NCBI GenBank assembly: GCA_044223735.1 | Contig: JBGALR010000003.1 | Coordinates: 183,038 to 247,037 of the forward strand | Direction of reading: 5' to 3' | Origin: Limisphaerales bacterium | GTDB taxonomy: Bacteria; Verrucomicrobiota; Verrucomicrobiia; Limisphaerales; UBA8199 | DNA: 64,000 bases | Part shown: positions 16,157 through 52,614 of the stretch, piece by piece | How the letters are laid out: each line of letters opens with the position of its first letter | Position numbering within the stretch: position 1 is the first letter of the stretch | Made by a program: the position numbers and the translations under genes | Notes under the pieces: generated by a model | The model's database searches: none | What the model saw: only the letters and a program-made list of their open reading frames with translations | Told to the model about the DNA's origin: nothing

Positions 16157-17296
16157 ATGAAAGTCGCACTCCTCACCACGGACAATCGCGAGGATACGCG
16201 GACATATGATGCGCCCGCCCCGTTTTTCGGCACCGCACCCGAAGCCTTGCTGAAAGGATTTGCCGCCCTGCCGGACGTGGAGGTCCACATCATTTCCTGT
16301 GCCCAGGCGCCTATGAAATCGCCGGAAAAACTTGCGCCCAACATTTTTTTTCACAGCGTTTATGTGCCCAGGAACGGCTGGATGCGCACCGCCTACCACG
16401 GCTGCATTCGCGCGGTGCGGCGCAAGCTGCGGCAAATCCACCCCGATATCGTGCACGGCCAGGGCACGGAGCGCGACTGCGCGTTGACGGCCGCATTTTC
16501 CGGTTTTCCCAACCTCCTCACGATTCATGGCAACATGCGGCGCATTGCCCGTGTGAGCCGCGCCAAGCCCTTTTCGTTTCTCTGGCTCGCGGCCTGGCTG
16601 GAGCGTTTCACCGTTCCGCGGGCCCGCGGCGTGATTTGCATCACGCAACACACCCGGCACGCCGTGGCCGGCCTGGCCCGCCGCACCTGGCTGGTTCCAA
16701 ATGCGGTCGATCCCTCGTTCTTCGAGGTCAACGCGAATTCCCCGCCGGGTCAGCCGCCAAAAATCCTGTGCGTCGGCGATGTTTATCCGCTTAAGAATCA
16801 AAACGCGTTCATTCGCGCGTTGGATCCCATCGCGGCAAAACAGAAATTCGACCTCCGCTTTCTCGGCCGGGTCGATGAATCCTCCGCTTATGGGAAGGAA
16901 TTTTTCGAACTGCTCAAAACCCGCGCCTGGTGCCAGTACGGCGGTTTCACGGATCGCGAAGGTTTGAAAATGCAACTACGAGAGGCCGCGTTGCTGGCAC
17001 TGCCCTCGCTCGAGGAAAATTGCCCCATGGTAATCCTGGAAGCCATGGCCGCCGGGGTCGCCGTGGCCGCCGCGCGGGTGGGCGGCGTCCCCGATTTGAT
17101 CCAAGGGGCCACGACCGGTTTTCTGTTTGAGCCCATGGACGAACTAAGCATTCGCTCGGCAGTGGCGAAAGCGCTCGCGGACATTTCCGCGACCCGCGGA
17201 CTGGCGCAGGAGGCGAAGCGACAGGCGATAGAACGGTTTCATCCCGACGTCATCGCCCGACGGCATCTTGAGATATATCAGGAGGTTCTCAAGTGA
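16157..17296 (+). CDS. Glycosyltransferase family 4 (GT-B)
   Basis: 'LALPSLEENCPMVILEAMAAGVAVAAARVGGVPDLI'. Confidence 0.85.
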   Translation: MKVALLTTDNREDTRTYDAPAPFFGTAPEALLKGFAALPDVEVHIISCAQAPMKSPEKLAPNIFFHSVYVPRNGWMRTAYHGCIRAVRRKLRQIHPDIVHGQGTERDCALTAAFSGFPNLLTIHGNMRRIARVSRAKPFSFLWLAAWLERFTVPRARGVICITQHTRHAVAGLARRTWLVPNAVDPSFFEVNANSPPGQPPKILCVGDVYPLKNQNAFIRALDPIAAKQKFDLRFLGRVDESSAYGKEFFELLKTRAWCQYGGFTDREGLKMQLREAALLALPSLEENCPMVILEAMAAGVAVAAARVGGVPDLIQGATTGFLFEPMDELSIRSAVAKALADISATRGLAQEAKRQAIERFHPDVIARRHLEIYQEVLK

Positions 17297-17416
17297 ACCT
17301 TTGATTGGGCCTTCAAAAAAGAGGTTGCCGCTCGTCCCCTGGAAAACCATGATACCGCCGTAAATGGCTCCCCGATTCGTCTCCGGTAACACTGCGCGCG
17401 AACGGCGGGCGCACGC

Positions 17417-18445
17417 ATGAATCCGCCACCATTGGTCAGCGTCCTGGTTCCGAGTTATAACGCCGCCCGATATCTCCCGGACCTGTGCGAGACTTTAAAG
17501 GCGCAAACGTACCCGCATTTCGAAGTTCTTATTGCGGACGATGGCTCCACCGACAAGACCACGGCGATTCTTGAACCCTTTCTCCAGGACCAGCGATTCC
17601 GCTGCCTCGGGTGGAAAAAGAATCGCGGCCTCAACCAGGGCCTCGCGATTCTTTGCGATACGGCAGCCGGGAAATACTGGTGTTCCCCGGGCGCGGACGA
17701 CCTGCTCCATCCCGATTTTCTGGAGAAGCGGGTGAAACTCCTCGAGGCAAATCCGCAGGCATTTGGGCTTCACGGTCCGGCGGAATTGATCGACGAAAAC
17801 GGCGGCCCCACCAAACGCGGCCCCATTCCCCTCGCGCTTCCCGCCGAATTAGGGCCGCCGCGCTGCGTTGAGGTGCTGATGCAGCACAATGTAATCATCC
17901 AACCCTCGGCGGTTTTCCGCACCAGCGTCACCCGCCAGGTCCTGCCTTTTTATTCCTGGAATTGGGAATACGCTCCCGATTGGTTTCTTTGGATTTTGCT
18001 GGCCGCCACCGGCCGGGATTTGCTGTTCGACACCGAAGTGTTGATGAAGTATCGCGTGCACGGCAGTTCGCTCAGCGGGGTTCCGGAAAAAGACCACCTC
18101 CGCCGCGCCGAACGACGCCTCGCCCCGCTGGTGGCGCTGAAAACCGCCGCCGGCTATTCCCAGTGGGCCGCGCAAAGCTGGAGTCGGTGGGGGAAGATTC
18201 TTTACCGGCGCTGGTTGCGTCAGGCGCTGGCGTTGCGCTCGCGCGGCGGATTGCGGGACGTTTGGGTCCAGCTTGCCGCGCACTCCTACTACGGGGCGGC
18301 GGGTAAACCGGTGTCGTTTCCCCTCGAAGTTCTCAAGCACGGGCCCGGCATCGTCTGTTCCGATCGCGCCCACCAAAGCGCGTTGAAGCGACAAAAGTTT
18401 CCCGTCTCCGGCCTGGCCGAAGTGGACGATCCCATTTTCCGGTGA
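17417..18445 (+). CDS. Glycosyltransferase family 2
   Basis: 'VSVLVPSYNAARYLPDLCETLKAQTYPHFEVLIADDGSTDKT' and 'SPGADDLL' (the DxD region). Confidence 0.85.
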   Translation: MNPPPLVSVLVPSYNAARYLPDLCETLKAQTYPHFEVLIADDGSTDKTTAILEPFLQDQRFRCLGWKKNRGLNQGLAILCDTAAGKYWCSPGADDLLHPDFLEKRVKLLEANPQAFGLHGPAELIDENGGPTKRGPIPLALPAELGPPRCVEVLMQHNVIIQPSAVFRTSVTRQVLPFYSWNWEYAPDWFLWILLAATGRDLLFDTEVLMKYRVHGSSLSGVPEKDHLRRAERRLAPLVALKTAAGYSQWAAQSWSRWGKILYRRWLRQALALRSRGGLRDVWVQLAAHSYYGAAGKPVSFPLEVLKHGPGIVCSDRAHQSALKRQKFPVSGLAEVDDPIFR

Positions 18446-18652
18446 CGTCCTGTCACTGGCATTATCCCTCCGCAAATCATTCCGGTGACCTGAGGCCGCT
18501 CGAATATTGCCGTTGCAAAATTGACAATCAACAAGCCGCTCCAATAAGCTTCGCCTGCCGTGCTAAACCGCATTCTGACCGTCGATGAACGGAAATGGTC
18601 CTGCGCCCGCTGCCCACTCCAGCCGAAGCGGGCACTGAACCATCCGTAAGCA

Positions 18653-20074
18653 GTGAAGAAAGCCAAGATCATCCTCATCGGCGCGGGGCCGACCGGCCTG
18701 GGCGCGGCGCGGCGGCTCGAAGAATTGAAGCAGCACGACTGGCTGCTGCTCGAAGCCGGCGAAACCGCGGGCGGGCTGGCCTCGTCCTTTGTCGACGGAC
18801 AAGGGTTCACATGGGACATCGGCGGACACGTCCAGTTTTCCCACTACGATTATTTTGACCGCGCGATGAAGGAGTTTCTCGGCGCGGACGGCTGGCTTTA
18901 TCACGAACGGGAATCCTGGGTATGGATGCGCGACCGCTTCATACCGTACCCGTTTCAGAACAACCTCCATCGCCTGCCAACCGCGGATTTGGATCGCTGC
19001 CTCGCCGGCCTCGTGGATATCACGCGGCAACAGCCGGGACGCCCCGCGAATTTCCGCGAGTGGATTTTGGGCACCTTCGGCAGCGGCATCGCCGACGTAT
19101 TTCTCCTGCCGTATAATTTCAAGGTCTGGGCCTATCCGCCGGAGCGGATGAGCAACGAGTGGGTGGGCGAACGCGTGGCGGTGACGGATCTCAAGCGCGT
19201 CCTGCACAATCTCGTCCATCGCAAGGATGACGTGAATTGGGGACCCAACAACAAATTTCAATTTCCCCTGCACGGCGGCACCGGCGCCATCTGGCGGGCG
19301 GCGGCCCAACGGCTGCCCCAGGAAAAACTTCGCTTCAATACCGTCGTCCGCGGGATCGATGTTAAAAAACGCACCCTCACCACCACGTCCGGCGAGGTCA
19401 TCGGTTACGACACGTTGATTCCCACGCTGCCGTTGCGCGAACTCATCCGCCTCTCGGGCGCGAAGCAATTTGAAGCGGCGGCCGAACGCGGCCTGTTGTA
19501 TTCCACGTCGCACATCTTTGGCATCGGCCTGCGTGGCGCGCCACCGGAACACCTGCGCACCAAATGCTGGATGTATTTTCCCGAGGACGACTGTCCGTTT
19601 TATCGCGTGACGGTCTTCAGCAATTACTCGCCGAACAACGTGCCGGACATCAAGCAGTACTGGTCGTTGATGGCGGAAGTCTCCGAGTCGCCTTGCAAGC
19701 CGGTCAATCAGGCAGGCCTGATGGAAGAAGTGATCCAGGGCATGCTCGCCACGAAACTCGTCGCGCAACGTTCGGACATCATTTCCACCTGGCAATATCG
19801 CGCGGGTTACGGATACCCCACGCCGGGGTTGGAACGCAACGCGGCGCTCGCGCAAATCCTGCCATATTTCGAGGGTCAGGGCGTTTATCCTCGCGGACGC
19901 TTCGGTCTCTGGAAATACGAGGTCAGTAATCAGGACCATTCCTTCATGCAAGGCGTGGAGATCGTCGAGCATCTGCTGAATGGCAACGCCGAAGTGACCG
20001 CGCAGAATGCCAACCTTGCCAACAGCAAACGGCACCCCTGGCCGTTTGAGGCATGGCAAAAGCCCGCAAGTTGA
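18653..20074 (+). CDS. glf: UDP-galactopyranose mutase, long (eukaryote-type) form
   Basis: GTG start. Motifs: 'IILIGAGPTGLGAARRL', 'ETAGGLAS', 'DIGGHVQFSHYDYFD', 'IPYPFQNN', 'LPYNFKVWAYP', 'NWGPNNKFQFPLHGGTGAIW', 'KCWMYFPEDDCPFYRVTVFSNYSP', 'GYPTPGLERN', 'RGRFGLWKYEVSNQDHSFMQGVE'. Confidence 0.8.
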   Translation: MKKAKIILIGAGPTGLGAARRLEELKQHDWLLLEAGETAGGLASSFVDGQGFTWDIGGHVQFSHYDYFDRAMKEFLGADGWLYHERESWVWMRDRFIPYPFQNNLHRLPTADLDRCLAGLVDITRQQPGRPANFREWILGTFGSGIADVFLLPYNFKVWAYPPERMSNEWVGERVAVTDLKRVLHNLVHRKDDVNWGPNNKFQFPLHGGTGAIWRAAAQRLPQEKLRFNTVVRGIDVKKRTLTTTSGEVIGYDTLIPTLPLRELIRLSGAKQFEAAAERGLLYSTSHIFGIGLRGAPPEHLRTKCWMYFPEDDCPFYRVTVFSNYSPNNVPDIKQYWSLMAEVSESPCKPVNQAGLMEEVIQGMLATKLVAQRSDIISTWQYRAGYGYPTPGLERNAALAQILPYFEGQGVYPRGRFGLWKYEVSNQDHSFMQGVEIVEHLLNGNAEVTAQNANLANSKRHPWPFEAWQKPAS

Positions 20075-20077
20075 GCG

Positions 20078-21025
20078 GTGATTCCGACCATGCCCTCACC
20101 TGAACAGAAGCCGAAAGTGGCGGCGGTCGTGGTCACCCGAAACCGCCTGGAGTTGCTCAAGCTGGCGGTTGCGGCCTTGCGCGTCCAGACGCGGCCGGCG
20201 GACGAAATCATCATCATCGACAATGCCAGCGACGACGGCACCGGCGCGTGGCTTGCGCAACAAAAGGATTTGGTGGTTGTGCCGCAGCCGAACCTCGGCG
20301 GCGCGGGTGGATTTAGCGAAGGCATCAAACGCGCGTATCAACGCGGCCACGACTGGCTCTGGTGCATGGACGACGATACGATTCCGAGTCCAACCGCACT
20401 CGAACGACTGCTCGCTTCACCCCTCGCAAACCGGGAAACCACAGGTTTTCTTTGCAGTGTCGCCCGTTGGAAAGATGGGAGCGTTCATCTGATGAACGCG
20501 CCGGACCTTGATCGCAAATACACCACGATGATGGAATTGCTGCCGCAAGGCGCGCTTAAGGTCCGCACCGGCTCGTTCGTCTCCATCATGCTGCATCGCC
20601 GCGCCGTGGCGGCCAGGGGACTGCCGTTGCGGGAGATGTTTTTGTGGTTCGATGACGCGGAATATTCCGCCCGCATCAGCAGTTCGTTCGATTGCTACCA
20701 GATTCTCGACAGCGTCGTGGAACATCGCACCGAGATCAATTCCGGTGTGGACTTCGACAACATGGGCAAGCTCGCCATCGGCAAGCTGCGCTACGGACTC
20801 CGCAATTTTATCTTCCTGCGCAAATGGCAGGCGCCCTCCGCCACCGTCGGTTTGGCGCGGGCCGTAAAATCCGCCGTAAAGATGCAACTGCGGGCCCGGC
20901 GCCAGTTCTCTCTTCCGGATCAGTTTCAGGTCGCCAAGGCCATTTGGAGCGGCGTTTTCTTCAACGCCCGCATCGAGTATCCGGATGGCGCTGGCGGGAA
21001 CCAAACCGCTTCAGTTTCCCGCTGA
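20078..21025 (+). CDS. Glycosyltransferase family 2 (candidate galactofuranosyltransferase)
   Basis: 'AAVVVTRNRLELLKLAVAALRVQTRPADEIIIIDNASDDGT' and 'WLWCMDDDTIP'. Starts 4 nt after the mutase stop. Confidence 0.75.
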   Translation: MIPTMPSPEQKPKVAAVVVTRNRLELLKLAVAALRVQTRPADEIIIIDNASDDGTGAWLAQQKDLVVVPQPNLGGAGGFSEGIKRAYQRGHDWLWCMDDDTIPSPTALERLLASPLANRETTGFLCSVARWKDGSVHLMNAPDLDRKYTTMMELLPQGALKVRTGSFVSIMLHRRAVAARGLPLREMFLWFDDAEYSARISSSFDCYQILDSVVEHRTEINSGVDFDNMGKLAIGKLRYGLRNFIFLRKWQAPSATVGLARAVKSAVKMQLRARRQFSLPDQFQVAKAIWSGVFFNARIEYPDGAGGNQTASVSR

Positions 21026-21289
21026 CACTTTTCCCCGGGTTTGTTTTGTAATCTCCCGAAATTAAGATGCTTTCGGCGTACCCAATTCTCCCCCAAGGGT
21101 TGGAGACATTGAAAATGCTCGGGCGGTTATGAGTCATGCTTGGTTGAATGCGGATGCGATGACCTGTGCCCAAACGACGTCGGCGCGCTTGGCCCCCTCG
21201 CTTCCGCGAAGCGGAGGAGAGGAACAATTTGGTCACACCCAAGTCATAAACGCCCCACGCGGTCGAGGGCAACTGTCTTTCAATTTTAA

Positions 21290-21339
21290 AAGCCCCTCTC
21301 TCCGTGCTCTCTCCCCGCGACGTCGCGGGGAGAGAGGGT
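21290..21339. repeat. 50-bp palindromic element, copy A
   Basis: AAGCCCCTCTCTCCGTGCTCTCTCCCCGCGACGTCGCGGGGAGAGAGGGT contains the perfect 26-bp palindrome CTCTCCCCGCGACGTCGCGGGGAGAG. Near-identical copies lie at 24013-24062 and 24684-24733. Confidence 0.85.
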
Positions 21340-21461
21340 TCTGCCGCCATGACATCCTCGGCGATTCCATGCTGCGCGGTGTGTGGCGTGTTTAGGCAGG
21401 GTGCCCTCAATATCAGACTTTAAGAACCATTTCAGAATACACCGCTGGAAACTGTGCCAGA

Positions 21462-21496
21462 AATTGCCTTGAACCAAGGGCAATTCTTGTTAGTAT
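21462..21496 (+). promoter_or_regulatory. Candidate promoter with overlapping dyad operator upstream of the secreted-protein gene
   Basis: Dyad AATTGCCTTG-AAC-CAAGGGCAATT at 21462-21485. TTGAAC at 21469-74, a 16-nt spacer, then TAGTAT at 21491-96. Confidence 0.3.
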
Positions 21497-21578
21497 GCAC
21501 TCCGATTCAGAACGGCTGTAGTGGGTCATGATAAAAAATTTCTTGTCTGAAGGAGATAAGTCGGTTCGGCACTCCAGA

Positions 21579-23072
21579 ATGCAACGGCTGATTGTGATAA
21601 TCAGTCTGGCGCTAATTTTTTTCACCAACCGCGCCGGGGCATTTTCGCTGCTCGGCCCCTGCGATGATTGGATGGATGTGCAAAAAGGATTCAATCTGCC
21701 GGGCGACATCGGCGGCCCCATGAATATCGGCGAAGGCTATCGCTGGAATATACCGGTTGTCACCTATGGCTTCGACCATTCATTCCTCAATTACTTCGGC
21801 TCCAATGGCGTGGCCGCCGTGGAATCCGCCATTGCGTTACTGAATGCCTTGCCTCCCGCGTCTTCGATTAATTTGTCAGATTATTCGCCATCCGCATTGC
21901 GTACTCACGCCAGTGCGCAAGCGAGCCATCTCCTGGACCTGAAATCGATGAGCCTGTTCTTGCTGTTGGAACAAATGGGACTGACGGATCCGGTGCGTTA
22001 CGCTTTCTGTCTCCGGGACTTTGCCCAACAGCCAAATTCCACAAATTATATATTCAATGTCATCGAACGGAATTTCGATCCGGTAAATGCCCAATCTTCG
22101 CATTTCATTAATGGGAATTTTTTTACTTATTTCCTCAGGCAATCTTCTTGGACTCCGATGTCCAATGCCATATTTTGCCAACCCCAACCCCTCTCGGTCG
22201 ATCCCAACGCCCTTGACCGTTACCCTGTGGCTACTACGTATTGGATGGATAACGGAAAATATTTTATGAATTTGACGCCGGACGACGTCGGCGGTTTGAG
22301 ATATCTGCTCAGTGGGAACCAGGTACGATTCGAACATCTCCTGCCGGACGTTCACGCGCGAGGAACCAATCAACTGAACCTCATCTCGGGCGCCTACCGA
22401 CCCGGGATTGAAAAGGTTAGGTTCGTGCGGCACCCTTTCGGCTCCCTCACCGGCCAATTCGGAACTTTTACCAATCAATGGACCGATATTTTTTACGATT
22501 GGGACGGCGTATATTACCAGAACGTCGAACGGATCACGGCACGTCCGGACATTATTTTCAGTGCTGATGATTTGCTTCTCAGTTCGGTCACCAGAACGGG
22601 CACGACTAATTGGAAAAACAACGCTGCGGAAAATGACAATCCCGGCGGCGTTGGACCCGGTGTTATTCGTCCGCCCATGACACTTACCTTCATTACCGGG
22701 GCTCCACTACTGCGGAACGTTTACAGTCCGCTGTTTATCAACGACGGAATGTCTGAACTGGCCGGTACTGTGTCTTTTATTTGGGGCAGCTTCGACAATT
22801 CCACCAATGCCCCCATTACCTATCCCCAGGCACAAATCCCCTTCTCCAATAGTCAGGTGCGATTCCGACTTTCCGTCGGCGGAAGCACTAACACCCTGGC
22901 ATGGTCGCTGTCCGGCGCCGCCAATGGCCGCTTCCAATTCCAGACTTCGACGAACATGATCGATTGGGCCACCCTCGCACAAATGACGAACTCCGGTGCG
23001 CTCTTTAACTACCAATATCAAGGCTCAGAGAGCGAACCGAAGCGATTCTTCCGCACGGTGCGATTGCCTTGA
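21579..23072 (+). CDS. Secreted hypothetical protein
   Basis: Start chosen at ATG 21579 ('MQRLIVIISLALIFFTNRAGAFS', a signal peptide). No catalytic motif recognised. Flanked by repeats and a tRNA. Confidence 0.6.
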   Translation: MQRLIVIISLALIFFTNRAGAFSLLGPCDDWMDVQKGFNLPGDIGGPMNIGEGYRWNIPVVTYGFDHSFLNYFGSNGVAAVESAIALLNALPPASSINLSDYSPSALRTHASAQASHLLDLKSMSLFLLLEQMGLTDPVRYAFCLRDFAQQPNSTNYIFNVIERNFDPVNAQSSHFINGNFFTYFLRQSSWTPMSNAIFCQPQPLSVDPNALDRYPVATTYWMDNGKYFMNLTPDDVGGLRYLLSGNQVRFEHLLPDVHARGTNQLNLISGAYRPGIEKVRFVRHPFGSLTGQFGTFTNQWTDIFYDWDGVYYQNVERITARPDIIFSADDLLLSSVTRTGTTNWKNNAAENDNPGGVGPGVIRPPMTLTFITGAPLLRNVYSPLFINDGMSELAGTVSFIWGSFDNSTNAPITYPQAQIPFSNSQVRFRLSVGGSTNTLAWSLSGAANGRFQFQTSTNMIDWATLAQMTNSGALFNYQYQGSESEPKRFFRTVRLP

Positions 23073-23285
23073 GGCGGGATGCGGACATTAATTTCCGCGC
23101 TCCTATTCGTTGCCAGGCGGATCGAACGGTTAATGCCGTCGAATCACTTTCCTGAATTCCTGCCTTCCTCAGAGGACCATTACCCACACTCGGCCGACCC
23201 GCGATGCCGACCCCGGGCGTTAAATCCCCCCAGGTCGTTTGCGCTTGCTCGGGCGGTGGTTTCGCGCATAGTACGCGTGGTTTAA

Positions 23286-23361
23286 GGGCGCTTGGCGCAG
23301 CGGTTAGCGCGTCTCGTTTACACCGAGTAGGTCGGGGGTTCGAATCCCTCAGCGCCCACCA
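23286..23361 (+). tRNA. tRNA-Val (anticodon TAC)
   Basis: 76 nt. Acceptor GGGCGCT/AGCGCCC, D-arm GCGC/GCGC, anticodon loop UUUACAC, variable loop AGGTC, T-arm GGGGG-TTCGAAT-CCCTC, encoded CCA. One U:U mismatch sits at the top of the anticodon stem. Confidence 0.9.
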
Positions 23362-23750
23362 TTTTCCACCGGCTTTTTCCAGATCGGCGCGACGCGTTTC
23401 ATTTCGTCGATGAGCCAGCGGCAGGCGTCGAACGCTTCCGCGCGGTGCGGCGACACGATTTCCACCCAGAGGGATGCCTCGTTCACGTTCACCCGTCCCA
23501 CGCGGTGGACGAGCCGGACGGATTCGACGGGCCAGCGTTTTTCGAGCTGGTCGAACAGCAGGCCGAATTGGTGCTCGGCCATTTTCTGGAACACTTCGTA
23601 GTCCAGCGCGGCAATGGCGGCGTCGCCTTCGGTGCCGCGGACGAGTCCCAGGAAATGGACGACCGCGCCCATGCCGTGCGACGCGGAGCGGGCCGCGATG
23701 AGCGCCGCTTCGTCAATCGGCTCGCGGGTAATGACGAGGTGTCGTTGCAT
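23349..23750 (-). CDS. moaE: Molybdopterin synthase catalytic subunit MoaE
   Basis: 'GAVVHFLGLVRG...ALDYEVFQKMAE...VRLVHRVGRVNVNEASLWVEIVSPHRAEAFDACRWLIDEMKRVAPIWKK'. Confidence 0.85.
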   Translation of the reverse strand: MQRHLVITREPIDEAALIAARSASHGMGAVVHFLGLVRGTEGDAAIAALDYEVFQKMAEHQFGLLFDQLEKRWPVESVRLVHRVGRVNVNEASLWVEIVSPHRAEAFDACRWLIDEMKRVAPIWKKPVENGGR

Positions 23751-23809
23751 GGAAATCGGTGGGTATGGTGATGGAGGTGCGCGGAGGCGTCAATTGTTCA
23801 GAGGAGATC

Positions 23810-24118
23810 GGAAATGGGCGCGCATTCTGACGGAGAACCTCGACGAGGTTCCGTCCTCCAGCCCAGGATTGCGAGCTCGCGAGCTATCCTGGGTGGCGAT
23901 TCTAAAATCTTCATCAACCCGGAACGGGTTGTGCCCGAAGCTGCCGACGTAGGGAATACAACCAAGGTTGATCTTCGTTCGCATTCGATGCCAAGGTTAT
24001 TTCGATGGGTGGAAGCCCCTCTCTCCGTGCTCTCTCCCCGCGGCGTCGCGGGGAGAGAGGGTTTGGCGCGCAGGCGTGGGTGAGATGATTTGCCGTCGAG
24101 AGCGGATTGTGAATTTTT
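23810..24118. repeat. Composite structured repeat, full copy (185-bp left arm + 50-bp palindromic core + ~55-bp right arm)
   Basis: Left-arm hairpins at 23829-23855, 23862-23893 and 23916-23930. Core at 24013-24062. The right arm ends in GCCGTCGAGAGC. Confidence 0.8.
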
Positions 24119-24140
24119 TCGTTAATTTGTTCGGGAAATT

Positions 24141-24326
24141 GGAAATGGGCGCGCATTCTGACGGAGAACCTCAACGAGGTTCCAGCATACAGCCCAGGAT
24201 TGCGAGCTCGCGAGCTATCCTGGGTGGCGATTCCAAAATTTTCATCAACCCGGGACGGGTTGTGCCCGAAGCTGCCGACGTAGGGAATACAACCAAGGTT
24301 GAACTTCGTTTGTGCTCGATGCCAAA
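24141..24326. repeat. Composite structured repeat, copy 2 (left arm only), 331 bp downstream of copy 1
   Basis: Aligns base-for-base with 23810-23995 with a few substitutions (roughly 9 in 10 identical by eye). Confidence 0.8.
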
Positions 24327-24586
24327 TATGTAGAAAACTCTCGTTCAGGGTGGATTTCCCAACTGGTGCGCCTCAAACGATAATTCTTTGAGGTGTTTTT
24401 GAAATGAGGATGAATAAAGCTCGCCCTCACCCCGGCCCTCGTCCCCCAGGCGAGGGTGACGCTGTCGGTTGCGCTTGTTTTTTTGAAAACGCACCGCGTA
24501 TTCCTGCAAAAGGTTAGTTCCTCGCATAGAAATCGATTTTGAAGTTTGAGCGGATGTGCTGCTGTGGGCAAAAGGCCTTGTGGTCC

Positions 24587-24788
24587 GGCGGAGAATCTCG
24601 ACGAGATTCCGTCCTTCAGGGGACGGGTTGTGGCCGAAGCTGTGTTCGTTCGCATTCAAGGCCAAAGTTGTTTCCATGGGTAGAAGCCCCTCTCTCCGTG
24701 CTCTCTCCCCGCGGCGTCGCGGGGCGAGAGGGTGCGCGCGCTGGCGTGAGTGGGGTGATTCGCCGTCGAGAGCCAATTTTAAATTTTG
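24587..24788. repeat. Composite structured repeat, copy 3 (left arm with two internal deletions + core + right arm)
   Basis: GGCGGAGAATCTCGACGAGATTCCGTCC...GGGACGGGTTGTGGCCGAAGCTG...GTTCGCATTCAAGGCCAAAG, then the core at 24684-24733, then GATTCGCCGTCGAGAGC. Confidence 0.7.
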
Positions 24789-24843
24789 GCTGGGGACAAT
24801 TTTGATGGATGAACTGGAGGTGCCGGGTTTTTGGACTGGATTC

Positions 24844-24920
24844 GGGCGGTCACGGAGACCGCCGAGGGATCACTTTTTTCTTGCGGCGCCCTCGGAGAGG
24901 CCGCCCTACCATCCTTCCAC
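24844..24920. repeat. Second repeat family, copy 1
   Basis: GGGCGGTCACGGAGACCGCCGAGGGATCACTTTTTTCTTGCGG...GAGAGGCCGCCCTACCATCCTTCCAC. Contains the hairpin GGCGGTC-ACGGA-GACCGCC. Confidence 0.75.
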
Positions 24921-25108
24921 TTGCTGGCTTTCCGTCAAAATTCTCGGCTCGATATACCTGGCGCGGTTATCAAACTTGATCCATGGTCCGGGGAAGAGGA
25001 ACCGGGAAGCCCGCCCTCTTCTTTGACGGTGCTCTTTCACCCTGCCTGCGAACCTTCCGAGCTGCGCGCTCTGAATGCGCTGGCGGGATCTTCCGATAAA
25101 GAATATTT

Positions 25109-25191
25109 GGGCGGTCACGGAGACCGCCGAGGTATCAATTTTTTCTTGCGGTCCCGCATGCGGGAGAGAGGCCGCCCTACCATCATTCCAC
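25109..25191. repeat. Second repeat family, copy 2
   Basis: GGGCGGTCACGGAGACCGCCGAGGTATCAATTTTTTCTTGCGG...GAGAGGCCGCCCTACCATCATTCCAC. Same orientation as copy 1, 265 bp downstream. Confidence 0.75.
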
Positions 25192-25252
25192 CTCCGAAAC
25201 TAAAAATTCTTCTCTGTGCCTCCGTGTCTCTGTGGTGAAAAATTCCGCTCTC

Positions 25253-25498
25253 TCATCCCCCCTGCACGGGCGGGAAAAGGGACACCTCCTCGCCTTCCTT
25301 CAGCACATAATCGGCGGTCTGGTAATCGACATCCACGGCCATGAGCATCGAGCGTCGCAGGGCGGCTAATTTGGGAAACTTAAGCATCACTTTTTCGACG
25401 AGGTCGCCGAGGGTGGCGCCGGCGGGGATGGTTTCCTGGTATCGGGCGCAGCCGGTCTGGTCTTTGAACCAGGAATAGAAGGTCACGGTCACGCGCAT
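25253..25498 (-). CDS. moaD: MoaD/ThiS-family sulfur-carrier protein
   Basis: 81 aa ending in '...VSLFPPVQGG', the C-terminal Gly-Gly. The length fits a beta-grasp protein. Confidence 0.8.
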   Translation of the reverse strand: MRVTVTFYSWFKDQTGCARYQETIPAGATLGDLVEKVMLKFPKLAALRRSMLMAVDVDYQTADYVLKEGEEVSLFPPVQGG

Positions 25499-25518
25499 GG
25501 CGGAGCAGAGCGGATGGC

Positions 25519-26196
25519 TCAGGCTTGGCCGCGCGTCGGCTTTTTGGCGGCCTTGGAGCTCTTGGAACCGGCGGCTTTCTTGGGCGCGATGACTTGCTGG
25601 CAGGCTTGTTTGTAAACGTGCGGGTGGAGCACGCCGACGAAGGGGAGGTTGCGATAGCGTTCGGCGAAATCGAGGCCGTAGCCGACGACGAAGAAATCCG
25701 GGATCTCGAAACCGACGTAGTCGGCGATGACGTCGTCGGTGCGACGGGCGGCTTTGTTGAGCAGGACGCAGGTCTTGATGCGGCGCGGTTTGAGGGCGCG
25801 AAGTTTGTCGAGGACGCGATAAAGGGTTTTGCCGGTGTCGAGGATGTCGTCCACGAGGAGGACGTCGCGGCCGCGGACGTCGAGGCGGAGTTCCTTGGTG
25901 AAGACGAGGTCGCCGGATTCGGTGCCGGCGCCGTAGCTGGAGACGCCGATGAAATCCAGGCGCAGGGGCAGGGAGAGGTTGCGGATGAGGTCGGCGAGGA
26001 ACATCACGGTGCCGTTCAGCAGGGAGACGACGACCATCTCGTGGCCGGTGAAGTCGCGGACGATATCGCGCGACATGACGCGGATGCGGTTGGCGATCTG
26101 GGTCTCGGTGATGAGGATGCGCTCCACCTCGCTGCGCCAGCGCGGGGGCACGCTTGCCCGGGTGCGAAGTGCGAGGCCTGGCGGGTGGGGTTTCAT
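25519..26196 (-). CDS. hpt: Hypoxanthine(-guanine) phosphoribosyltransferase with lysine-rich C-terminal tail
   Basis: 'VVVSLLNGTVMFLADL' and 'DVLLVDDILDTGKTL' (the PRPP loop). The tail reads 'APKKAAGSKSSKAAKKPTRGQA'. Confidence 0.9.
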   Translation of the reverse strand: MKPHPPGLALRTRASVPPRWRSEVERILITETQIANRIRVMSRDIVRDFTGHEMVVVSLLNGTVMFLADLIRNLSLPLRLDFIGVSSYGAGTESGDLVFTKELRLDVRGRDVLLVDDILDTGKTLYRVLDKLRALKPRRIKTCVLLNKAARRTDDVIADYVGFEIPDFFVVGYGLDFAERYRNLPFVGVLHPHVYKQACQQVIAPKKAAGSKSSKAAKKPTRGQA

Positions 26197-26270
26197 GTGC
26201 GGGAAATTCTAAAGGGTAATTGGCGGTTGCCGAGAATTTTCTTCGCGCGGGGTGAAAGCAGGGCGGCGGG

Positions 26271-26651
26271 TTAAATATGTTTGGAGTCGGACTCGTCCTT
26301 GACGGCGTAACCGCTTTCCTGGCGCTTGAAATTGACCTCGTTTTTGCGGACGTAGGCGTTGAAGACGTCGTCGGCGCTCATGCCGAGGACCTGGGCCATG
26401 CTGATGAGAAAGTGAAAAAGGTCCACGACTTCGACACGGGCGTTTTGCTCGTCGAACTTCTGGTATTTGGCCCACCATTTCCAGGGGACGCTGTCGGTGA
26501 GCTCGGCGAGTTCCTGGGACATGGCGCGGCTGTAGTTAAGGAGCCACTTGGTTTTTTCAGCTTCGTCCATGCCTTCCATGTGGACGCCAATGCGTTCGTT
26601 GAGGGCGGTCTGCATGCGAAAGAGTTCGCGAAGCTGGTCTGGTTTTTCCAT
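26271..26651 (-). CDS. Dimeric-dUTPase-like all-alpha NTP pyrophosphohydrolase
   Basis: 'NYSRAMSQELAELTDSVPWKWWAKYQ...VEVVDLFHFLISMAQVLGMSADDVFNAYVRKNEVNFKRQESGY' resembles the dimeric dUTPase/MazG-like family. Confidence 0.6.
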   Translation of the reverse strand: MEKPDQLRELFRMQTALNERIGVHMEGMDEAEKTKWLLNYSRAMSQELAELTDSVPWKWWAKYQKFDEQNARVEVVDLFHFLISMAQVLGMSADDVFNAYVRKNEVNFKRQESGYAVKDESDSKHI

Positions 26652-27273
26652 GGGCGGGAGATTACCGAAGGCGGCGGTTGGGTGACAGGGAAAATTTTCA
26701 CCGGACAGCGCCGGTCAGGCGTTGAGGCGCGGAGGGGCGGAGGATTTTGACATGAGCGCGTGGCGAGTTGGGGAAATTTTGGGGCGTCTGGGGTTGCGGG
26801 AGCATTGGACAGCAAATGTCCAACCCCCTCGGTTAAGATGTGACGCGGATAGTGTGGTTCTTTGACATATTGAGGATTGGGTTGGGAGGATGGGCGATTC
26901 GCACCGATTCGCCGCCGGGTGGGTGGTGGGTGTGGCGGATGCGCGAATGGGCGTGAAGATGAGGTGCAAGGCGCCAGAAATCGCCAAAGCAGATAAGTGT
27001 AGGTGGAAAAAAGTTTCCTGCGGGGTCGGACGGGAGGCGCGGTGAAAGTGAGAATTAAGGGTGGTTCGCGCTATGGGCGGAGACGGCTGAGAATTGATCT
27101 GTGTTGGGTTAAGTTGCGCTCAAGTTGTGCTGACTCACGGCGATTCATGGAACGGTACGCCTTGGGGAAGGAATTGAAAATTTGCGAAAAGTGGTGCGGC
27201 AATCAGCGTGCGGGTGCATGAGGATCGGATTTTGGCCTTTGAAGTTGCGCAACCAGTGCTTATAAAGAGGTTT

Positions 27274-37863: not shown

Positions 37864-37950
37864 AACGCAATATAGCGCATGTGCCGATGCTCGCAATTCG
37901 CAGATTGGCGGCTTGTGGGGAATCAGCGCGGGACGCATACTTTAACGGCA

Positions 37951-39162
37951 ATGATGTTTTATGATGTGGTGATCGTGGGCGGCGGCCCGGCCGGTTCGAC
38001 TCTGGGAGCGTTGCTCGGTAGGGCCGGTTTTTCGGTGGCGATCATTGAGCGTGAAACTTTTCCCCGGTATCATATCGGCGAGTCTTTGTTGCCGGAAGTG
38101 CTGGATGTATTGGAGGAGTCAGGCGCATTGCCGCTCGTGGAGAAGGCCGGGTTTCTCCGGAAGGAAGGCGGGGTTTTCCGGTGGGGCACAAATCCAGAGC
38201 CTTGGACCTTTCATTTCGACGAAGCAAAGGAGCGCTATCGATTTACATACGCCTATCAGGTCATTCGTTCCGAGTTCGATACCATTTTGCTGGATCATGC
38301 TCGCGCTTCGGGAGTGACGGTTTTTGAAAATCACGTGGCGCGTGATTTTTCTGAATGCCCCAATGGTGATGGCGAACCGTCGGGCGGAAAAGTGATGGCG
38401 ACGGCTCAGAATGGTGAATCCATCGAACTCACGGCGCGGATCGTTGCGGATTGTTCCGGCCAGGCGGGCTGGCTGGCGAACAAATTCAAGCTCCGGAAGT
38501 ATGATCCGTTTCTGAGAAATGTGGCCGTCTTTGCCTACTATCGCGACGCGTCGCGCCTGGTCGGGCGTGATGAGAACGCGATATTCTGCGAGGCGATGGA
38601 GTTGGGCTGGTTTTGGAATATCCCGCTCCACGATGGCACGAACAGCGTGGGGCTGATTACAAAAGCTGAACTGGCTCCGGCCAGTGACGACCGTGCCGCG
38701 TTCTACGAGGCGGCAATTCAGAAAAGTGTTTACACGAAAAAAATGCTCTCGTCTGCCCGCAGGGTGACGGACGTGCGTTGCATCGCCGATTATTCTTTTC
38801 GGCCCACGCGATTAACCGGCCCCGGTTATGTGTTGGTGGGTGACGCGGGCAATTTCATCGATCCCATCTGGTCCACGGGCATCATGCTCGCCACGACCGG
38901 CGCGCGCCTGGCGGCGCGGGCGATCAAGGAGTCATTTGAAAGCGGCTCCAGCGAGCCCCTGGCTCGATACGAAAAAGCCGCTCAAACAGTGGTGAGCCGT
39001 TATCGACATTTCATTTATTATTTCTACAAAACCAATGCCACGCCCGATAATTATTTCTGGGAAGCGTATTCGGTGGTGGGCACGGCGGCGGACCCGCGCG
39101 ACGCCTTCATCCGCCTGATCTCGGGCCGGCTGGGGTTGCAGGCCGAGACGGCGACGGCGTAA
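37951..39162 (+). CDS. Flavin-dependent halogenase (tryptophan-halogenase family)
   Basis: ATG at 37951. 'YDVVIVGGGPAGS' (GxGxxG), 'GWFWNIPL' (WxWxIP), 'FIDPIWSTGI', and a candidate catalytic Lys in 'GFLRKEGGVFRWG'. Confidence 0.7.
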   Translation: MMFYDVVIVGGGPAGSTLGALLGRAGFSVAIIERETFPRYHIGESLLPEVLDVLEESGALPLVEKAGFLRKEGGVFRWGTNPEPWTFHFDEAKERYRFTYAYQVIRSEFDTILLDHARASGVTVFENHVARDFSECPNGDGEPSGGKVMATAQNGESIELTARIVADCSGQAGWLANKFKLRKYDPFLRNVAVFAYYRDASRLVGRDENAIFCEAMELGWFWNIPLHDGTNSVGLITKAELAPASDDRAAFYEAAIQKSVYTKKMLSSARRVTDVRCIADYSFRPTRLTGPGYVLVGDAGNFIDPIWSTGIMLATTGARLAARAIKESFESGSSEPLARYEKAAQTVVSRYRHFIYYFYKTNATPDNYFWEAYSVVGTAADPRDAFIRLISGRLGLQAETATA

Positions 39163-39164
39163 GC

Positions 39165-39443
39165 TTAATTCGATTTCACCGCGTTCGCGCTGGTGAGGGC
39201 AGCCGCAATGCTGTCCACAGACAGGAAAACCTTTCGCGCGATTTCCGGGTCGGTGATTTTGAAGCCGAAAGTTTTGTCGAGGGCAACCACGAGTTGGAGG
39301 GCGTCGACCGAATCCAGCCCCAGGCCATCGGGACCAAACAGTGGCTTGTCGTCCTCAATTTCATCGGCAGTTACCTGAAGCATCAGGTTTTCGACGATCA
39401 GGCTTTTAAGCTGTTTCTTGAGCGCTGCGTTATTTTCCATCAA
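39165..39443 (-). CDS. Acyl carrier protein
   Basis: 92 aa. 'LGLDSVDALQLVVAL' is the phosphopantetheine Ser motif. Confidence 0.9.
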   Translation of the reverse strand: MMENNAALKKQLKSLIVENLMLQVTADEIEDDKPLFGPDGLGLDSVDALQLVVALDKTFGFKITDPEIARKVFLSVDSIAAALTSANAVKSN

Positions 39444-40171
39444 AAAATTCCACCATCTATTTTGAGGACCGAGCCTGTGATATATGCTGCGTCGTCACAA
39501 GCCAAAAACCGGATCGCCGCCGCCACTTCGCCGGGCTTGCCGAGGCGGCGCATGGGAATCCGTGCTTCCGCGGCTTTGCGTTCGTCCGCTGACCAGCGGG
39601 CCAGCGAAGCGGTGTCAATGTAGCCCGGGCAAATGGCGTTGACGGTAATGCCAATGCGCGCGACTTCCTTTGCCAGCGATTGAGTCATCGCCACCACTCC
39701 TGCTTTGGCCGCCGCGTAATTTGTCTGGCCGGCGGGCGCGAGCAGGGCGCTGAGTGAAGCAACATTGATGATGCGCCCATGACGCTGACTGATCATGGCC
39801 GGCAAGACCACCTGGCAACCATGGAAAACGCTGTTGAGATTCGTGGCGAGCGTTTCGTCCCAGACTGCGGGCGGCATGGCGCCGAGCAACATATCCTTGT
39901 GCGCGCCGGCGCTGTTGACGAGCACATCGATGCGCGTATCGGCGGCGATAATTGCGTTCACGGCCTCGGTCCATGCTGCGGGAGAAGTCACATCCAGCGT
40001 GATGCAACGGCATCGTTCTGAAAACTCCTGTGCCAACACTTCGGCCTGGTCGCGTCGCTGATTTAAACCGAGCCAGAGGTAATTCTCCGAACTTTCCGTG
40101 AGAAAAGCACGTGCGGCGGCGAGCCCAATGCCACCGTTTCCGCCGGTGATTAGGATAACGCGCTTGCTCAT
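39440..40171 (-). CDS. 3-oxoacyl-ACP reductase (SDR, FabG-like)
   Basis: 'ILITGGNGGIGLAAARAF', 'NSAG', 'NYAAAKAG' (YxxxK). Confidence 0.9.
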   Translation of the reverse strand: MSKRVILITGGNGGIGLAAARAFLTESSENYLWLGLNQRRDQAEVLAQEFSERCRCITLDVTSPAAWTEAVNAIIAADTRIDVLVNSAGAHKDMLLGAMPPAVWDETLATNLNSVFHGCQVVLPAMISQRHGRIINVASLSALLAPAGQTNYAAAKAGVVAMTQSLAKEVARIGITVNAICPGYIDTASLARWSADERKAAEARIPMRRLGKPGEVAAAIRFLACDDAAYITGSVLKIDGGIF

Positions 40172-41205
40172 GGCAGCTGGTTGGGAGCCTTGATGAAACG
40201 CGCGCCGATGGCTTGCTGATTGGTGCCCATCACGCTGAGGTTAGCTGCTGAAGACTGACCTGCCAAGATGGCATCCACAGCGGCGGCACATTGCCAGGCG
40301 GCGGCGGCGACCATCCCTTCACCGAGGACTCGCCGGACGCTCAATCTCGGCCCGCTCCAGTCAGGCCACGCGGATTGCTCGGCTTTGTCGGTTGTGAAAT
40401 TTCCGGCGCTACTGTCGCAAAGCAAATCGGTCACTGCGACCGATGGCAGTTCCCGGCGCACATTTTTCGCGGCGTCGCTGCGACTGACGCGGCTCGAATA
40501 AGTATGCGCGTTGGTGATCGCCTGCACCTCCACGCCACAGGATAATTCTGAATCCCGCACCAACGCCACCGCGCCCGCCCCGGCGCTCAGAACGGCCGAG
40601 CGTTCCAAATGCCACAGCGCATCGGCCAGCACCCAGTTGATTTCTTCGGCGCCGATGACAAGGGCAACATCTATTCGATTGTCCAACAACCACTCGGCGC
40701 CCATGGCAAGGCCTTGAAGAAAATTCGCTGAGTCGCCGATCAACGTGTTAAGCAGGGGTGTCTCCGGCAGGAGAGCCGCCACGCTGCTGCCCAGTGCGGC
40801 GAAAACGGTTTCCGGAAAGAGCAAGGGGCTGGCGGTCGCCGGGTCCTTCAAGACCTCTTCAAAAAAGCGGCACGAATAATGAACGCAACCGCCGTCCAGA
40901 CACATCACCACACCAATGCGGGGCGCAGGCTGTCCGCGCTCTTTGAGCGGCGCCATCGCTTCAAGCGCGGCTGCGGCGGCATAGTGTGTGATGGGGCTGG
41001 TTCGCCGCAACCGTGGATGCGCAAGAAATGCCGGGCGCGTGGCCGGCTCGGGCACTGGGCGACATTCGAGTGGTGCGGCACGACCGGGTCGATCCAGGGC
41101 GCGGGCGGGCAGAAGGTCTCCCGTTCGCAGCGCTTCGCGCAAGGCGGTCATTCCCCAGCCCGCTGGCGATACCGCCCCCACTCCTCCCACAAAAATACGG
41201 CTCAT
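40168..41205 (-). CDS. Ketosynthase-like chain-length-factor subunit (active-site Cys replaced)
   Basis: ATG at 41205, with an ATGA overlap with the KS stop. 'NTLIGDSANFLQGLAMGAEWL' aligns with the KS 'IISNACASGSDAIGHAWEWI', putting Ser in place of Cys. No HGTGT motif. Confidence 0.7.
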   Translation of the reverse strand: MSRIFVGGVGAVSPAGWGMTALREALRTGDLLPARALDRPGRAAPLECRPVPEPATRPAFLAHPRLRRTSPITHYAAAAALEAMAPLKERGQPAPRIGVVMCLDGGCVHYSCRFFEEVLKDPATASPLLFPETVFAALGSSVAALLPETPLLNTLIGDSANFLQGLAMGAEWLLDNRIDVALVIGAEEINWVLADALWHLERSAVLSAGAGAVALVRDSELSCGVEVQAITNAHTYSSRVSRSDAAKNVRRELPSVAVTDLLCDSSAGNFTTDKAEQSAWPDWSGPRLSVRRVLGEGMVAAAAWQCAAAVDAILAGQSSAANLSVMGTNQQAIGARFIKAPNQLP

Positions 41206-42440
41206 GTCCACCTCCGAAAAATGAGGGTGGCATTCACGCCGCCGAATCCAAACGAGTTGGAGAGAACCTGATTTACCCGCGCCGATTGCGGTTCGGTCAC
41301 GAGCGGAAAAGCGCAAGCGGTGTCCGGCTTTGCCAGCCCGATTTCCGGGGGCAGCCATTGCTCGCGCAACGCCATCAGGCAAACGGCCGCTTCAACGGCG
41401 CCGGCGGCACCGAGCAAATGGCCGATCGATGATTTGGAAGAACTGACCGGCAGCGTGGTCACGCGGTCACCCGCCCAGCGACCGATGGCGATGGCTTCCG
41501 CCGCGTCGTTGAGCGGCGTGCCGGTGCCATGCGCGTTGACATAGTCGATGTCGGCCGGTGTTGCGCGCGCCGCTTCGCAAGCGAGGGTCATGGAAGCCAG
41601 CGCGGCATTACCCTGGGGATGCGGTTGCGTCAGGTGATGGCGGTCCACCGACTGGCCATAGCCAACTACCTCGCCCAAAATCTCCGCGCCACGCCGTTGG
41701 GCGTGCTCGAGCGATTCGAGCGTGAATGCGGCAGCGCCTTCGCCTAACAACATTCCATCGCGCGAGGCGTCGAAAGGCCGGCAAGTGGTGGGAGAAAGCA
41801 ATTGCAACGAATCGAAGCCCGCGAACACGAGTTCTGTGTGGGCGTCGTATCCACCGGTCAACACCCGATCGGCCGACCCGCGCCGAATCCATTCCCAGGC
41901 GTGTCCAATGGCATCACTGCCTGAGGCGCAGGCGTTGGAGATGATTCGGATCGAGCCACCTGCGCCAAGCGCGTCCGCCACCATGCGCGCCTGTGTGTTC
42001 GCTTGATAGATCATCGCGCGTTTCGCCTGTTTACGATGGCGGTTGGGAGCGGTCAGCGCCTGACGAAAATAGCTCTCGCCTTCGGTCATGCCGCCAGCGG
42101 TAGTGCCGACAATAGTCGGAATGTCTTCACCTGCTGCCCAGCCGGATTGGTTCCAAGCTTCGTAAGCGGCCAGCAAAAACATTTTTCCCGCTCGATCCAG
42201 TCGTGCGGTGTGCCGTTCCCTCAATTTGGTTTTGGGAAGTGCAGGGGGCAGCGATACTTGCGCCGCAAGCTTCACGCGCTGACGACTGACATCAAATAAA
42301 GTGACCGGCGTGAAATTGCTTCGTCCCGCGCGAAACCCCTCCGCGCTTTGCTTCCATCCCGCGCCAAGACTGGTAATAACGCCTGCACCCGTCACGACGA
42401 CGCGTCGTGGCAGGGCAGAACGGGCGATGGGGAACAACAT
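41202..42440 (-). CDS. Beta-ketoacyl-ACP synthase (FabF-like KS)
   Basis: 'ISNACASGSDAIG' (Cys), 'NAHGTGTPLND' (His), 'SSIGHLLGAAG' (His), 'SNSFGFGGVNATLIF'. Confidence 0.92.
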   Translation of the reverse strand: MLFPIARSALPRRVVVTGAGVITSLGAGWKQSAEGFRAGRSNFTPVTLFDVSRQRVKLAAQVSLPPALPKTKLRERHTARLDRAGKMFLLAAYEAWNQSGWAAGEDIPTIVGTTAGGMTEGESYFRQALTAPNRHRKQAKRAMIYQANTQARMVADALGAGGSIRIISNACASGSDAIGHAWEWIRRGSADRVLTGGYDAHTELVFAGFDSLQLLSPTTCRPFDASRDGMLLGEGAAAFTLESLEHAQRRGAEILGEVVGYGQSVDRHHLTQPHPQGNAALASMTLACEAARATPADIDYVNAHGTGTPLNDAAEAIAIGRWAGDRVTTLPVSSSKSSIGHLLGAAGAVEAAVCLMALREQWLPPEIGLAKPDTACAFPLVTEPQSARVNQVLSNSFGFGGVNATLIFRRWT

Positions 42441-42529
42441 GGTCTGGACAAAGTTGCGGCCGAACTATCGCGAAAAGAGTTCAGGCCAAAAAAGCGGCCA
42501 GCAAGTATGAACGCGAATACCCATGGCCA

Positions 42530-43555: not shown

Positions 43556-43606
43556 CTACATTTAAGATAGAAAAGGAATGGTGTATTGGCAAACGCAATT
43601 CCCCGG

Positions 43607-45484: not shown

Positions 45485-45523
45485 GCTTGCGGCAAAATCT
45501 AACGATCCATTGCGAAGGTGCAA

Positions 45524-46795: not shown

Positions 46796-46816
46796 ATTTT
46801 GCGGTGCCCGCGCCGT

Positions 46817-47251: not shown

Positions 47252-47256
47252 ACCTC

Positions 47257-52585: not shown

Positions 52586-52614
52586 GAGGCAATGCGATTC
52601 TATCGCATTGCCTC
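52586..52614 (-). terminator. Perfect 12-bp-stem hairpin between the VOC gene and the PhyH gene
   Basis: GAGGCAATGCGA-TTCTA-TCGCATTGCCTC, starting 23 nt after the VOC stop. No U-tract. Confidence 0.4.

Follow-up and report, generated by a model that had tools for sequence, protein, structure and literature searches.

A lineage-specific insertion of palindromic repeats between moaD and moaE in a Limisphaerales bacterium

The moa locus and its relatives

The genes for the subunits of molybdopterin synthase are normally found side by side. In the stretch of 64,000 nucleotides that we analysed (the window), moaD and moaE lie on the same strand, with moaD as the upstream partner, and they are 1502 bp apart. 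This is the arrangement that a preliminary description of this DNA had reported, and Pfam searches confirmed both open reading frames. Upstream of moaD, on the same strand, are genes for an hpt-like phosphoribosyltransferase and a dUTPase (dUTPase_2). The main features of the locus are:

23286-23361, plus strand: tRNA-Val, convergent with moaE and overlapping the last 13 nt of moaE
23349-23750, minus strand: moaE, 133 aa, intact and full-length (Pfam PF02391 at positions 1-113/114, E 2e-32)
23751-23788, minus strand: retained ancestral moaD-moaE spacer of about 37 nt, directly upstream of moaE (boundary approximate)
23789-25252, no strand: lineage-specific non-coding insertion of about 1.46 kb, delimited by colinearity with a relative on both sides
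25253-25498, minus strand: moaD (ThiS/MoaD family), 81 aa, intact (Pfam PF02597, E 4e-12)

We compared this spacing with that of loci encoding MoaE homologues that are 76-82% identical. These homologues come from Verrucomicrobiota metagenome-assembled genomes (MAGs) and metagenomes, and their source names include Akkermansiaceae, Pedosphaera, and Verrucomicrobiae. In all six distinct relatives, moaD is directly upstream of moaE, with gaps of 17-70 bp. (Loci L001-L004 were counted as one organism; it and L006/L007, L008, L009, L011, and L012 have gaps of 35, 38, 70, 35, 31, and 17 bp, respectively.) The gene order exbB-dUTPase-hpt-moaD-moaE-tRNA-Val is common to the relatives wherever the contig is long enough, and no spacer-like sequence was found in any relative locus. 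Because six relatives share the gene order and have such short gaps, the long spacer is a lineage-specific insertion. By comparison with these relatives, the moaD-moaE spacing is abnormal for the lineage, as had been proposed, and none of the relatives has a gene at this site.

The closest comparison is with L001 (GCA_037025285.1), which is colinear with the window across IMPDH, exbD, exbB, dUTPase, hpt, moaD, moaE, and tRNA-Val. At the moaD/moaE junction, 1504 bp of the window remain unaligned, versus 37 bp of L001. The only other large break is a divergent region between exbB and dUTPase, which is 528 bp in the window versus 32 bp in L001. When aligned by eye, the 37 nt just upstream of moaE in the window look like the 35-nt spacer of L001 (CTCCGCGC(A/T)CC...ACCGA). 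This likeness next to moaE places the insertion at approximately 23789-25252, so that it begins right after the stop codon of moaD, which it abuts.

Repeats and hairpins in the inserted block

Repeats account for about 64% of the spacer, and the block includes about 530 bp of sequence that is not repeated. The largest repeat is a composite unit of about 331 bp, which consists of an A part with three hairpins (H1, H2, and H3) and a B part with a 51-nt palindromic core (the B core). One full copy and two damaged copies are present. A smaller unit, C, occurs twice:

23791-24121, plus strand: composite copy 1, complete, with H1 at 23829-23855, H2 at 23862-23893, H3 at 23915-23931, and the B core at 24013-24063
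24122-24325, plus strand: composite copy 2, A part only and without a B core, with H1 at 24160-24186, H2 at 24193-24224, and H3 at 24246-24262
24326-24583, no strand: unique segment of 258 bp between composite copies 2 and 3, with no self-match in the window
24584-24787, plus strand: composite copy 3, with H1 kept at 24587-24613, without H2 and without the left arm of H3, and with the B core at 24684-24734
24840-24920, plus strand: C unit copy 1, 81 nt, with the hairpin GGCGGTC-acgga-GACCGCC at 24845-24863
25105-25191, plus strand: C unit copy 2, 87 nt, with the hairpin at 25110-25128

The three kinds of repeat listed in the preliminary description, namely a composite unit in three versions, a palindromic core of about 50 bp, and a unit of about 80 bp in two copies, are thus all present; the composite copies begin at 23791, 24122, and 24584. 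Copies 1 and 2 are arranged head-to-tail, and their A-units (23803-23994 and 24134-24325) are 92% identical over 192 nt at a spacing of 331. In copy 3, an A part with internal deletions (24584-24642) is joined to a full second B-unit, which is 87% identical to the first over 144 nt (23974-24117 versus 24645-24787). Both B-units hold the core, which is 51-53 nt long and contains a 30-nt palindrome with a 13-bp stem and a 4-nt loop. Judging from the asymmetric left flank, the two cores in the spacer have the same orientation, and they are 641 nt apart. The C units are 85% identical, with a 6-nt indel in the middle.

Dinucleotide shuffling of the window, done 100 times, produced none of these repeat patterns. 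With fewer than two intact copies in the array, Tandem Repeats Finder gave no report. A search for inverted repeats found the B-core palindromes only, with no terminal inverted repeats (TIRs) or target site duplications (TSDs) around the 331-bp unit.

As the repeat copies have diverged by 8-15%, the block is not very recent. The divergence also bears on whether the block might be an assembly artefact, such as a repeat-induced misjoin or a chimeric fill in a draft or MAG contig. Repeats can mislead assemblers, but these copies are too different to collapse or misjoin, both junctions coincide exactly with the gap that ancestrally separated the two genes and is flanked by synteny on either side, and the block lies within a 285-kb contig. 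An artefact is extremely unlikely.

The hairpins in composite copy 1 are H1 (GACG-GA-GAACCTC-gac-GAGGTTC-CGTC, 23829-23855), H2 (CCCAGGAT...ATCCTGGG, 23862-23893), and H3 (CAACCCG-gaa-CGGGTTG, 23915-23931). The stems of H1, H3, and the C hairpin are 7 bp. We counted perfect stems of at least 7 bp with loops of 3-12 nt and found 10 in the spacer, as compared to 1.0 ± 1.0 in 200 shuffles. This amounts to 6.7 stems per kb, or about 7-fold the window-wide density of 0.91 per kb. The earlier characterization of the spacer as hairpin-dense is correct. Since the stems are repeat copies, the 10 stems represent just five types of hairpin, and a handful of recurring palindromes accounts for the high density.

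The B core is also found once outside of the spacer:

21290-21340, plus strand: B core in intergenic DNA, with a GT2 glycosyltransferase gene on one side and a 514-aa ORF on the other

This copy is 98% and 94% identical to the two B cores of the spacer over 51-53 nt, and its flanks are unrelated to theirs. It is the only module of the spacer that we found elsewhere in the window: the window contains three B cores, all extragenic, and no A or C modules beyond the spacer. The proposal that the block is built from small repeated hairpin modules is supported, and at least one of these modules, the B core, does occur outside the spacer. Beyond the window, the B-core pattern had one match among 185,579 species-representative GTDB genomes, in an Actinomycetota MAG, which is probably a chance match, and it had no matches in JGI metagenomes or in viral contigs. 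A degenerate pattern for H1 had one match in metagenomes, on a GC-rich contig, where it falls within a radical-SAM coding sequence and reads as AENLDEVP; we judged this to be chance as well. The C hairpin was not found in viral contigs. An origin from a plasmid or phage was rejected after blastn of the spacer against plasmid and phage collections gave no match.

The distribution of the modules and the arrangement of the copies also bear on how the block formed. One account is purely local: a short spacer could have grown by replication slippage and segmental duplication without any mobile element, and the B core at 21.3 kb would then be a gene-conversion or ectopic copy. Composite copies 1 and 2 do lie directly head-to-tail with a period of 331, A and C are confined to the spacer within the 64-kb window, and we found no TIR or TSD, and no transposase among the 25 genes of the window that were scanned, all of which favor this account. 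But the roughly 530 bp of unique sequence in the block has no source in an ancestral spacer of 35 nt, and the B core recurs 2.7 kb away with 94-98% identity and unrelated flanks. The distant B core is more similar to the cores in the spacer than the local B-units are to each other (87%), which suggests that the 51-nt module propagates independently. We consider growth from the ancestral spacer alone to be rather unlikely.

Tests for coding and RNA function

The preliminary description had called the spacer free of ORFs. This does not hold literally, as ORFs of up to 156 aa exist there; what does hold is that they carry no coding signal. Their codon log-odds scores are at most 0.006, whereas 25 long genes of the window average 0.29. 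(Two ORFs are excepted from this limit; for the most part they shadow moaE and moaD on the opposite strand.) In none of the six frames do the repeat copies differ by an excess of synonymous changes, and the two C copies fall in different frames of one ORF. Six-frame translations of the spacer had no match in Pfam at E ≤ 5. The 89-aa ORF that spans A and B was searched exhaustively with phmmer against 1.84 billion representative proteins, and the one match, to a 3637-aa protein, is marginal (E 6e-6, 26% identity). Word-indexed searches of 5.8 billion proteins, in which spurious translations of the repeats served to seek further copies, found nothing, either among the best 8000 candidates for a concatenated six-frame query or at E ≤ 10 for a six-frame query of the B core. 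A hidden protein gene or a pseudogene was rejected on these grounds, that is, no codon bias, no synonymous excess, no Pfam match, and no homologues. The spacer contains no missed protein gene, and annotators should be warned not to call its ORFs of 135-156 aa as genes.

The same results weigh on the idea that a gene or an insertion sequence once lay between moaD and moaE and has decayed. The block is about the size of a small gene or insertion sequence, and it has ORFs of 135-156 aa. Against this, no frame matches Pfam at E ≤ 5, there are neither protein relatives nor a codon signal, none of the relatives has a gene at this site, about 64% of the block is internal repeats, and the sequence is not similar to plasmid or phage records. 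This origin seems very improbable to us.

A diversity-generating retroelement was also considered. The mismatches between the A parts of composite copies 1 and 2 (A1 and A2) are of mixed type (four C>T, three G>A, and others), and this candidate was rejected because there is no adenine bias. No reverse transcriptase was found among the neighboring genes that we scanned.

To look for RNA function, we searched positions 20500-26500 against Rfam 15 with cmscan. At E ≤ 1 there was no match inside the spacer; the only matches were to the tRNA-Val, along with weak matches that overlap or adjoin it. Known RNA families such as the Moco riboswitch, group II introns, and HEARO-type RNAs were rejected at this threshold.

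The spacer is more structured than most of the control stretches. Using sliding 120-nt scores, the mean folding z of the spacer is -0.8 on the plus strand and -1.2 on the minus strand, while four of six intergenic controls and two coding stretches are at about +0.4 to -0.5. The remaining two intergenic stretches are structured on the plus strand as well: 21026-21527, which holds the B core (z = -1.7), and 26652-27207 (z = -1.1). Composite copy 1 as a whole (23791-24121) scores -2.0 on the plus strand and -2.35 on the minus strand, and single modules of the spacer score from -2.7 to -4.4. The unique segment between composite copies 2 and 3 includes a putative terminator, and a consensus scan found a promoter-like site on the same strand:

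24356-24384, plus strand: promoter-like site
24369-24395, plus strand: terminator-like hairpin followed by TTTTT (z = -4.4), with a perfect 7-bp stem at 24371-24393, facing away from the direction of moa transcription

The pattern of substitutions hints at constraint on the hairpins. The 15 mismatches between A1 and A2 avoid the inner stem of H1, H2, and the stem of H3, and two of them are the central loop bases of H1 and H3; the outer stem of H1 does carry mismatches. A rough post hoc hypergeometric estimate for this avoidance of stems is P ~ 0.01. In copy 3, H1 has one compensatory double change (C-G to T-A) that keeps the pairing. With just three copies, this covariation is not significant, as 171 of 500 shuffles equal it. 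These hints fit either selection on the hairpins or hairpin-templated correction in palindromic DNA, and they do not separate a function of the DNA from a function of the RNA.

If the block were a functional RNA locus, it might regulate moaE as a long structured 5' leader or as an intercistronic element, or it might produce one or more small RNAs, for example a plus-strand transcript that ends at the hairpin at 24369-24395 and is antisense to the moa transcript. The enrichment of structure on both strands, the conserved stems and variable loops of A1 and A2 together with the one compensatory change, the plus-strand hairpin with its run of T (z = -4.4), and the promoter-like site at 24356-24384 are all consistent with this. 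But no Rfam family matches at E ≤ 1, and that includes the Moco riboswitch; none of the six relatives has the element, and in them moaE works with a gap of 17-70 bp; the middle of the C unit does not conserve its structure between the two copies; the hairpins are near-perfect palindromes with loops of 3-5 nt, as is typical of repeats at the DNA level; and the covariation is not significant. We regard a functional RNA as unlikely. The earlier suggestion of a cis-regulatory or non-coding RNA locus found no positive support in either the Rfam search (E ≤ 1) or the single compensatory change, which is not significant.

Kinship with known repeats, origin of the block, and expression of moaE

We compared the block to the known classes of small palindromic repeats. 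The GTAG- and CGTC-tagged super-families of REPs are defined by an unpaired GTAG or CGTC tetranucleotide at the end of a stem-loop (PMC3733652), and REPs are known to occur inside operons and to affect the stability or termination of mRNA (reviewed in PMC3733652). The B core fits the description of a REP as a short imperfect extragenic palindrome of about 20-40 bp: its palindrome is 30 nt, and there are three copies. Like REPs and their mosaics (bacterial interspersed mosaic elements, BIMEs) in Enterobacteria and Pseudomonas, the hairpins of the spacer are short GC-rich extragenic palindromes that are clustered with other motifs into a mosaic, they lie between genes of one transcription direction, and they are specific to a lineage. 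In contrast to the tagged REPs, the B core has no unpaired GTAG or CGTC at its ends. (The flanks read ...CCGTG|stem...stem|GGT on one strand and ...AACC|stem...stem|CACGG on the other; CGTC occurs in the B core only inside the loop, and the terminal CGTC of H1 is paired with the 5' GACG.) Furthermore, unlike in BIMEs, the units are in direct rather than alternating orientation, and the 331-bp composite is much larger than a BIME module. REPs are dispersed across a genome in many copies; within the 64 kb of the window, the copy number of the B core looks low, at three, of which one is outside the spacer.

In a REPIN, a short spacer separates two REPs that are inverted relative to each other, and REPINs are mobilised by RAYT transposases (PMC3116915, PMC3337134). 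The modules of the spacer resemble REPINs in that they are palindromic, non-autonomous, and maintained within one lineage, and they would form hairpins in single-stranded DNA. They differ in that the B cores have the same orientation and are 641 nt apart instead of forming an inverted doublet. A REPIN system also includes a single-copy RAYT, a Y1 transposase that is flanked by REPs. No RAYT or Y1 transposase, and indeed no transposase of any kind, was found among the 25 genes of the window that were scanned with Pfam.

A third comparison is with MITE-like elements. The BOX elements of pneumococci and the Correia elements of Neisseria insert between genes or within operons and form stable hairpins, and elements of the MITE, BOX, or Correia type can carry promoters or terminators that rewire neighboring genes. 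The block shares with them units of 100-350 bp that are built from sub-modules in variable number. It differs from MITEs in that the 331-bp unit lacks TIRs and TSDs and, within the 64-kb window, the whole unit occurs only in the local array. The block has no sequence similarity to any public record that was searched. In short, the block behaves like REP/BIME, REPIN, or MITE-like elements and is assigned to no named family.

What separates moaD from moaE is thus a lineage-specific insertion of about 1.46 kb, non-coding and rich in palindromic repeats. We think it probable that it is a cluster of repeats similar in kind to REPs/BIMEs or MITEs that was enlarged by local duplication. The insertion lies immediately after the stop codon of moaD, in a string of genes (hpt-moaD-moaE) that was ancestrally compact. 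We infer that the first to arrive were small modules with stem-loops, of the REP/BIME or MITE kind, the B core being a dispersed element of this sort; that head-to-tail duplication of the 331-bp composite and of the C unit of about 85 nt then enlarged the block locally; and that deletions and a divergence of the copies by 8-15% followed. The modules would be mobile in this scenario. Against mobility, A and C were not found outside the spacer, either in the window or, for the patterns searched, in the public collections; the B core has three copies in 64 kb; and there was no TIR or TSD, and no transposase among the 25 genes scanned. The idea of a landing pad for repeated independent insertions gained no support, as local duplication of units of about 331 and 85 bp explains most of the repetition.

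Such a block is a known kind of genome feature and would not surprise a specialist. If an insertion of locally duplicated repeats is the right explanation, then this locus is a clean natural case in which palindromic repeats have split a tightly linked pair of genes and killed neither of them. It would also point to an uncharacterised and untagged family of repeats in Verrucomicrobiota. To our knowledge, such elements have barely been catalogued in this phylum. Within the literature that we surveyed, the only such repeats mentioned from Verrucomicrobiota are the GTAG repeats of Opitutus terrae (PMC3733652). Barring transcript evidence of a regulatory role, nothing fundamental would change for Moco biosynthesis or for the biology of repeats.

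A bolder proposal is that the H1-H2-H3-B composite and the C unit belong to an undescribed, untagged family of structured repeats in this lineage of Verrucomicrobiota that acts as an intercistronic control module for moaE. Such a family could be a new non-autonomous mobile element, or it could consist of RNA or DNA hairpins under selection. MoaE would then be expressed independently of MoaD, for instance from a promoter borne by the element with the hairpins as barriers, and the stems would be kept by selection. We are doubtful of this proposal.

Under the explanation of inserted and duplicated repeats, the likely effect of the block would be passive, in that it would uncouple moaE from moaD. 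As moaE is intact and full-length while the repeat copies have diverged, it is presumably still expressed, either by read-through from moaD or from a promoter inside the repeats. A consensus scan predicted a single promoter site for the moa strand, some 335 nt ahead of moaE:

24085-24113, minus strand: sigma-70-like promoter match, TTCACA-17-AATCAT (9/12; weak; the only match on the moaE strand)

We take so weak a match to be no evidence of function. The consensus scan of the spacer found no terminator-like site on the moa (minus) strand, and because no intrinsic terminator was found there, read-through into moaE may be possible. However, RNA that is long, untranslated, and C-rich favors Rho-dependent termination. 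The GC skew of the plus strand is positive over about 23.5-24.85 kb, so RNA from the moa strand is C-rich and G-poor there. Since an untranslated stretch of 1.5 kb, C-rich in part, would invite Rho to terminate transcription, a promoter within the repeats seems a more likely source of moaE expression than simple read-through.

The exbB/dUTPase intergenic region

The divergent intergenic region between exbB and dUTPase is 556 bp long in the window (26652-27207), as compared to 178 bp in L001 (a relative's locus, from GCA_037025285.1) and 141 bp in L012 (another relative's locus). The unaligned part is:

26698-27225, unaligned part of the exbB/dUTPase intergenic region

This region is a second intergenic expansion that is specific to the lineage, besides the repeat-rich block between moaD and moaE. 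Its sequence is not related to that of the block. The + strand is strongly G-rich, with GC skew reaching +0.41.

The tRNA-Val gene and the region beyond it

The tRNA-Val(TAC) gene (23286-23361, +) is convergent with moaE, and the final 13 nt of moaE (23349-23361, stop codon included) fall within the tRNA gene. In L001, 33 bp separate the two genes. The tRNA also marks the point where colinearity between the window and L001 stops. On the matching side, L001 lacks the following ORF, which in the window lies within the stretch at 21400-23072:

21528-23072, + strand, 514-aa ORF with no match in Pfam

The G+C content of the stretch is 0.45-0.55, versus about 0.58-0.64 in its surroundings, and it may be acquired DNA. 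Its left edge is the site of an extra copy (21290-21340) of the B core, the 51-nt palindromic module of the moaD-moaE block.

Other palindromes

The genes at 51842-52555 (PhyH-like) and 52638-53084, both on the minus strand, have between them a hairpin that is not related to the B core:

52586-52614, perfect hairpin with a 13-bp stem, GAGGCAATGCGAT-tct-ATCGCATTGCCTC

This hairpin could be a further palindromic element, or else a terminator. In the public collections searched, a degenerate pattern for H1 (the first hairpin of the block's composite repeat) had a single match, at 358-381 of L010, a GC-rich metagenome contig. This match lies within radical-SAM-like coding sequence (translating as AENLDEVP) and shows that coding DNA can by chance give rise to short GC-rich palindromes of the H1 type.

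Other gene clusters

Upstream of the moaD-moaE region, several glycosyltransferase genes (GT4, GT2, GT2; 16157-21025) are probably a polysaccharide locus. The gene run at 37879-51281 points to a biosynthetic cluster of the lipid or polyketide-like type: it comprises genes for a tryptophan-halogenase-like flavoprotein, a beta-ketoacyl synthase, an AMP-binding enzyme and a FabA-like dehydratase, and a 1116-aa ORF.
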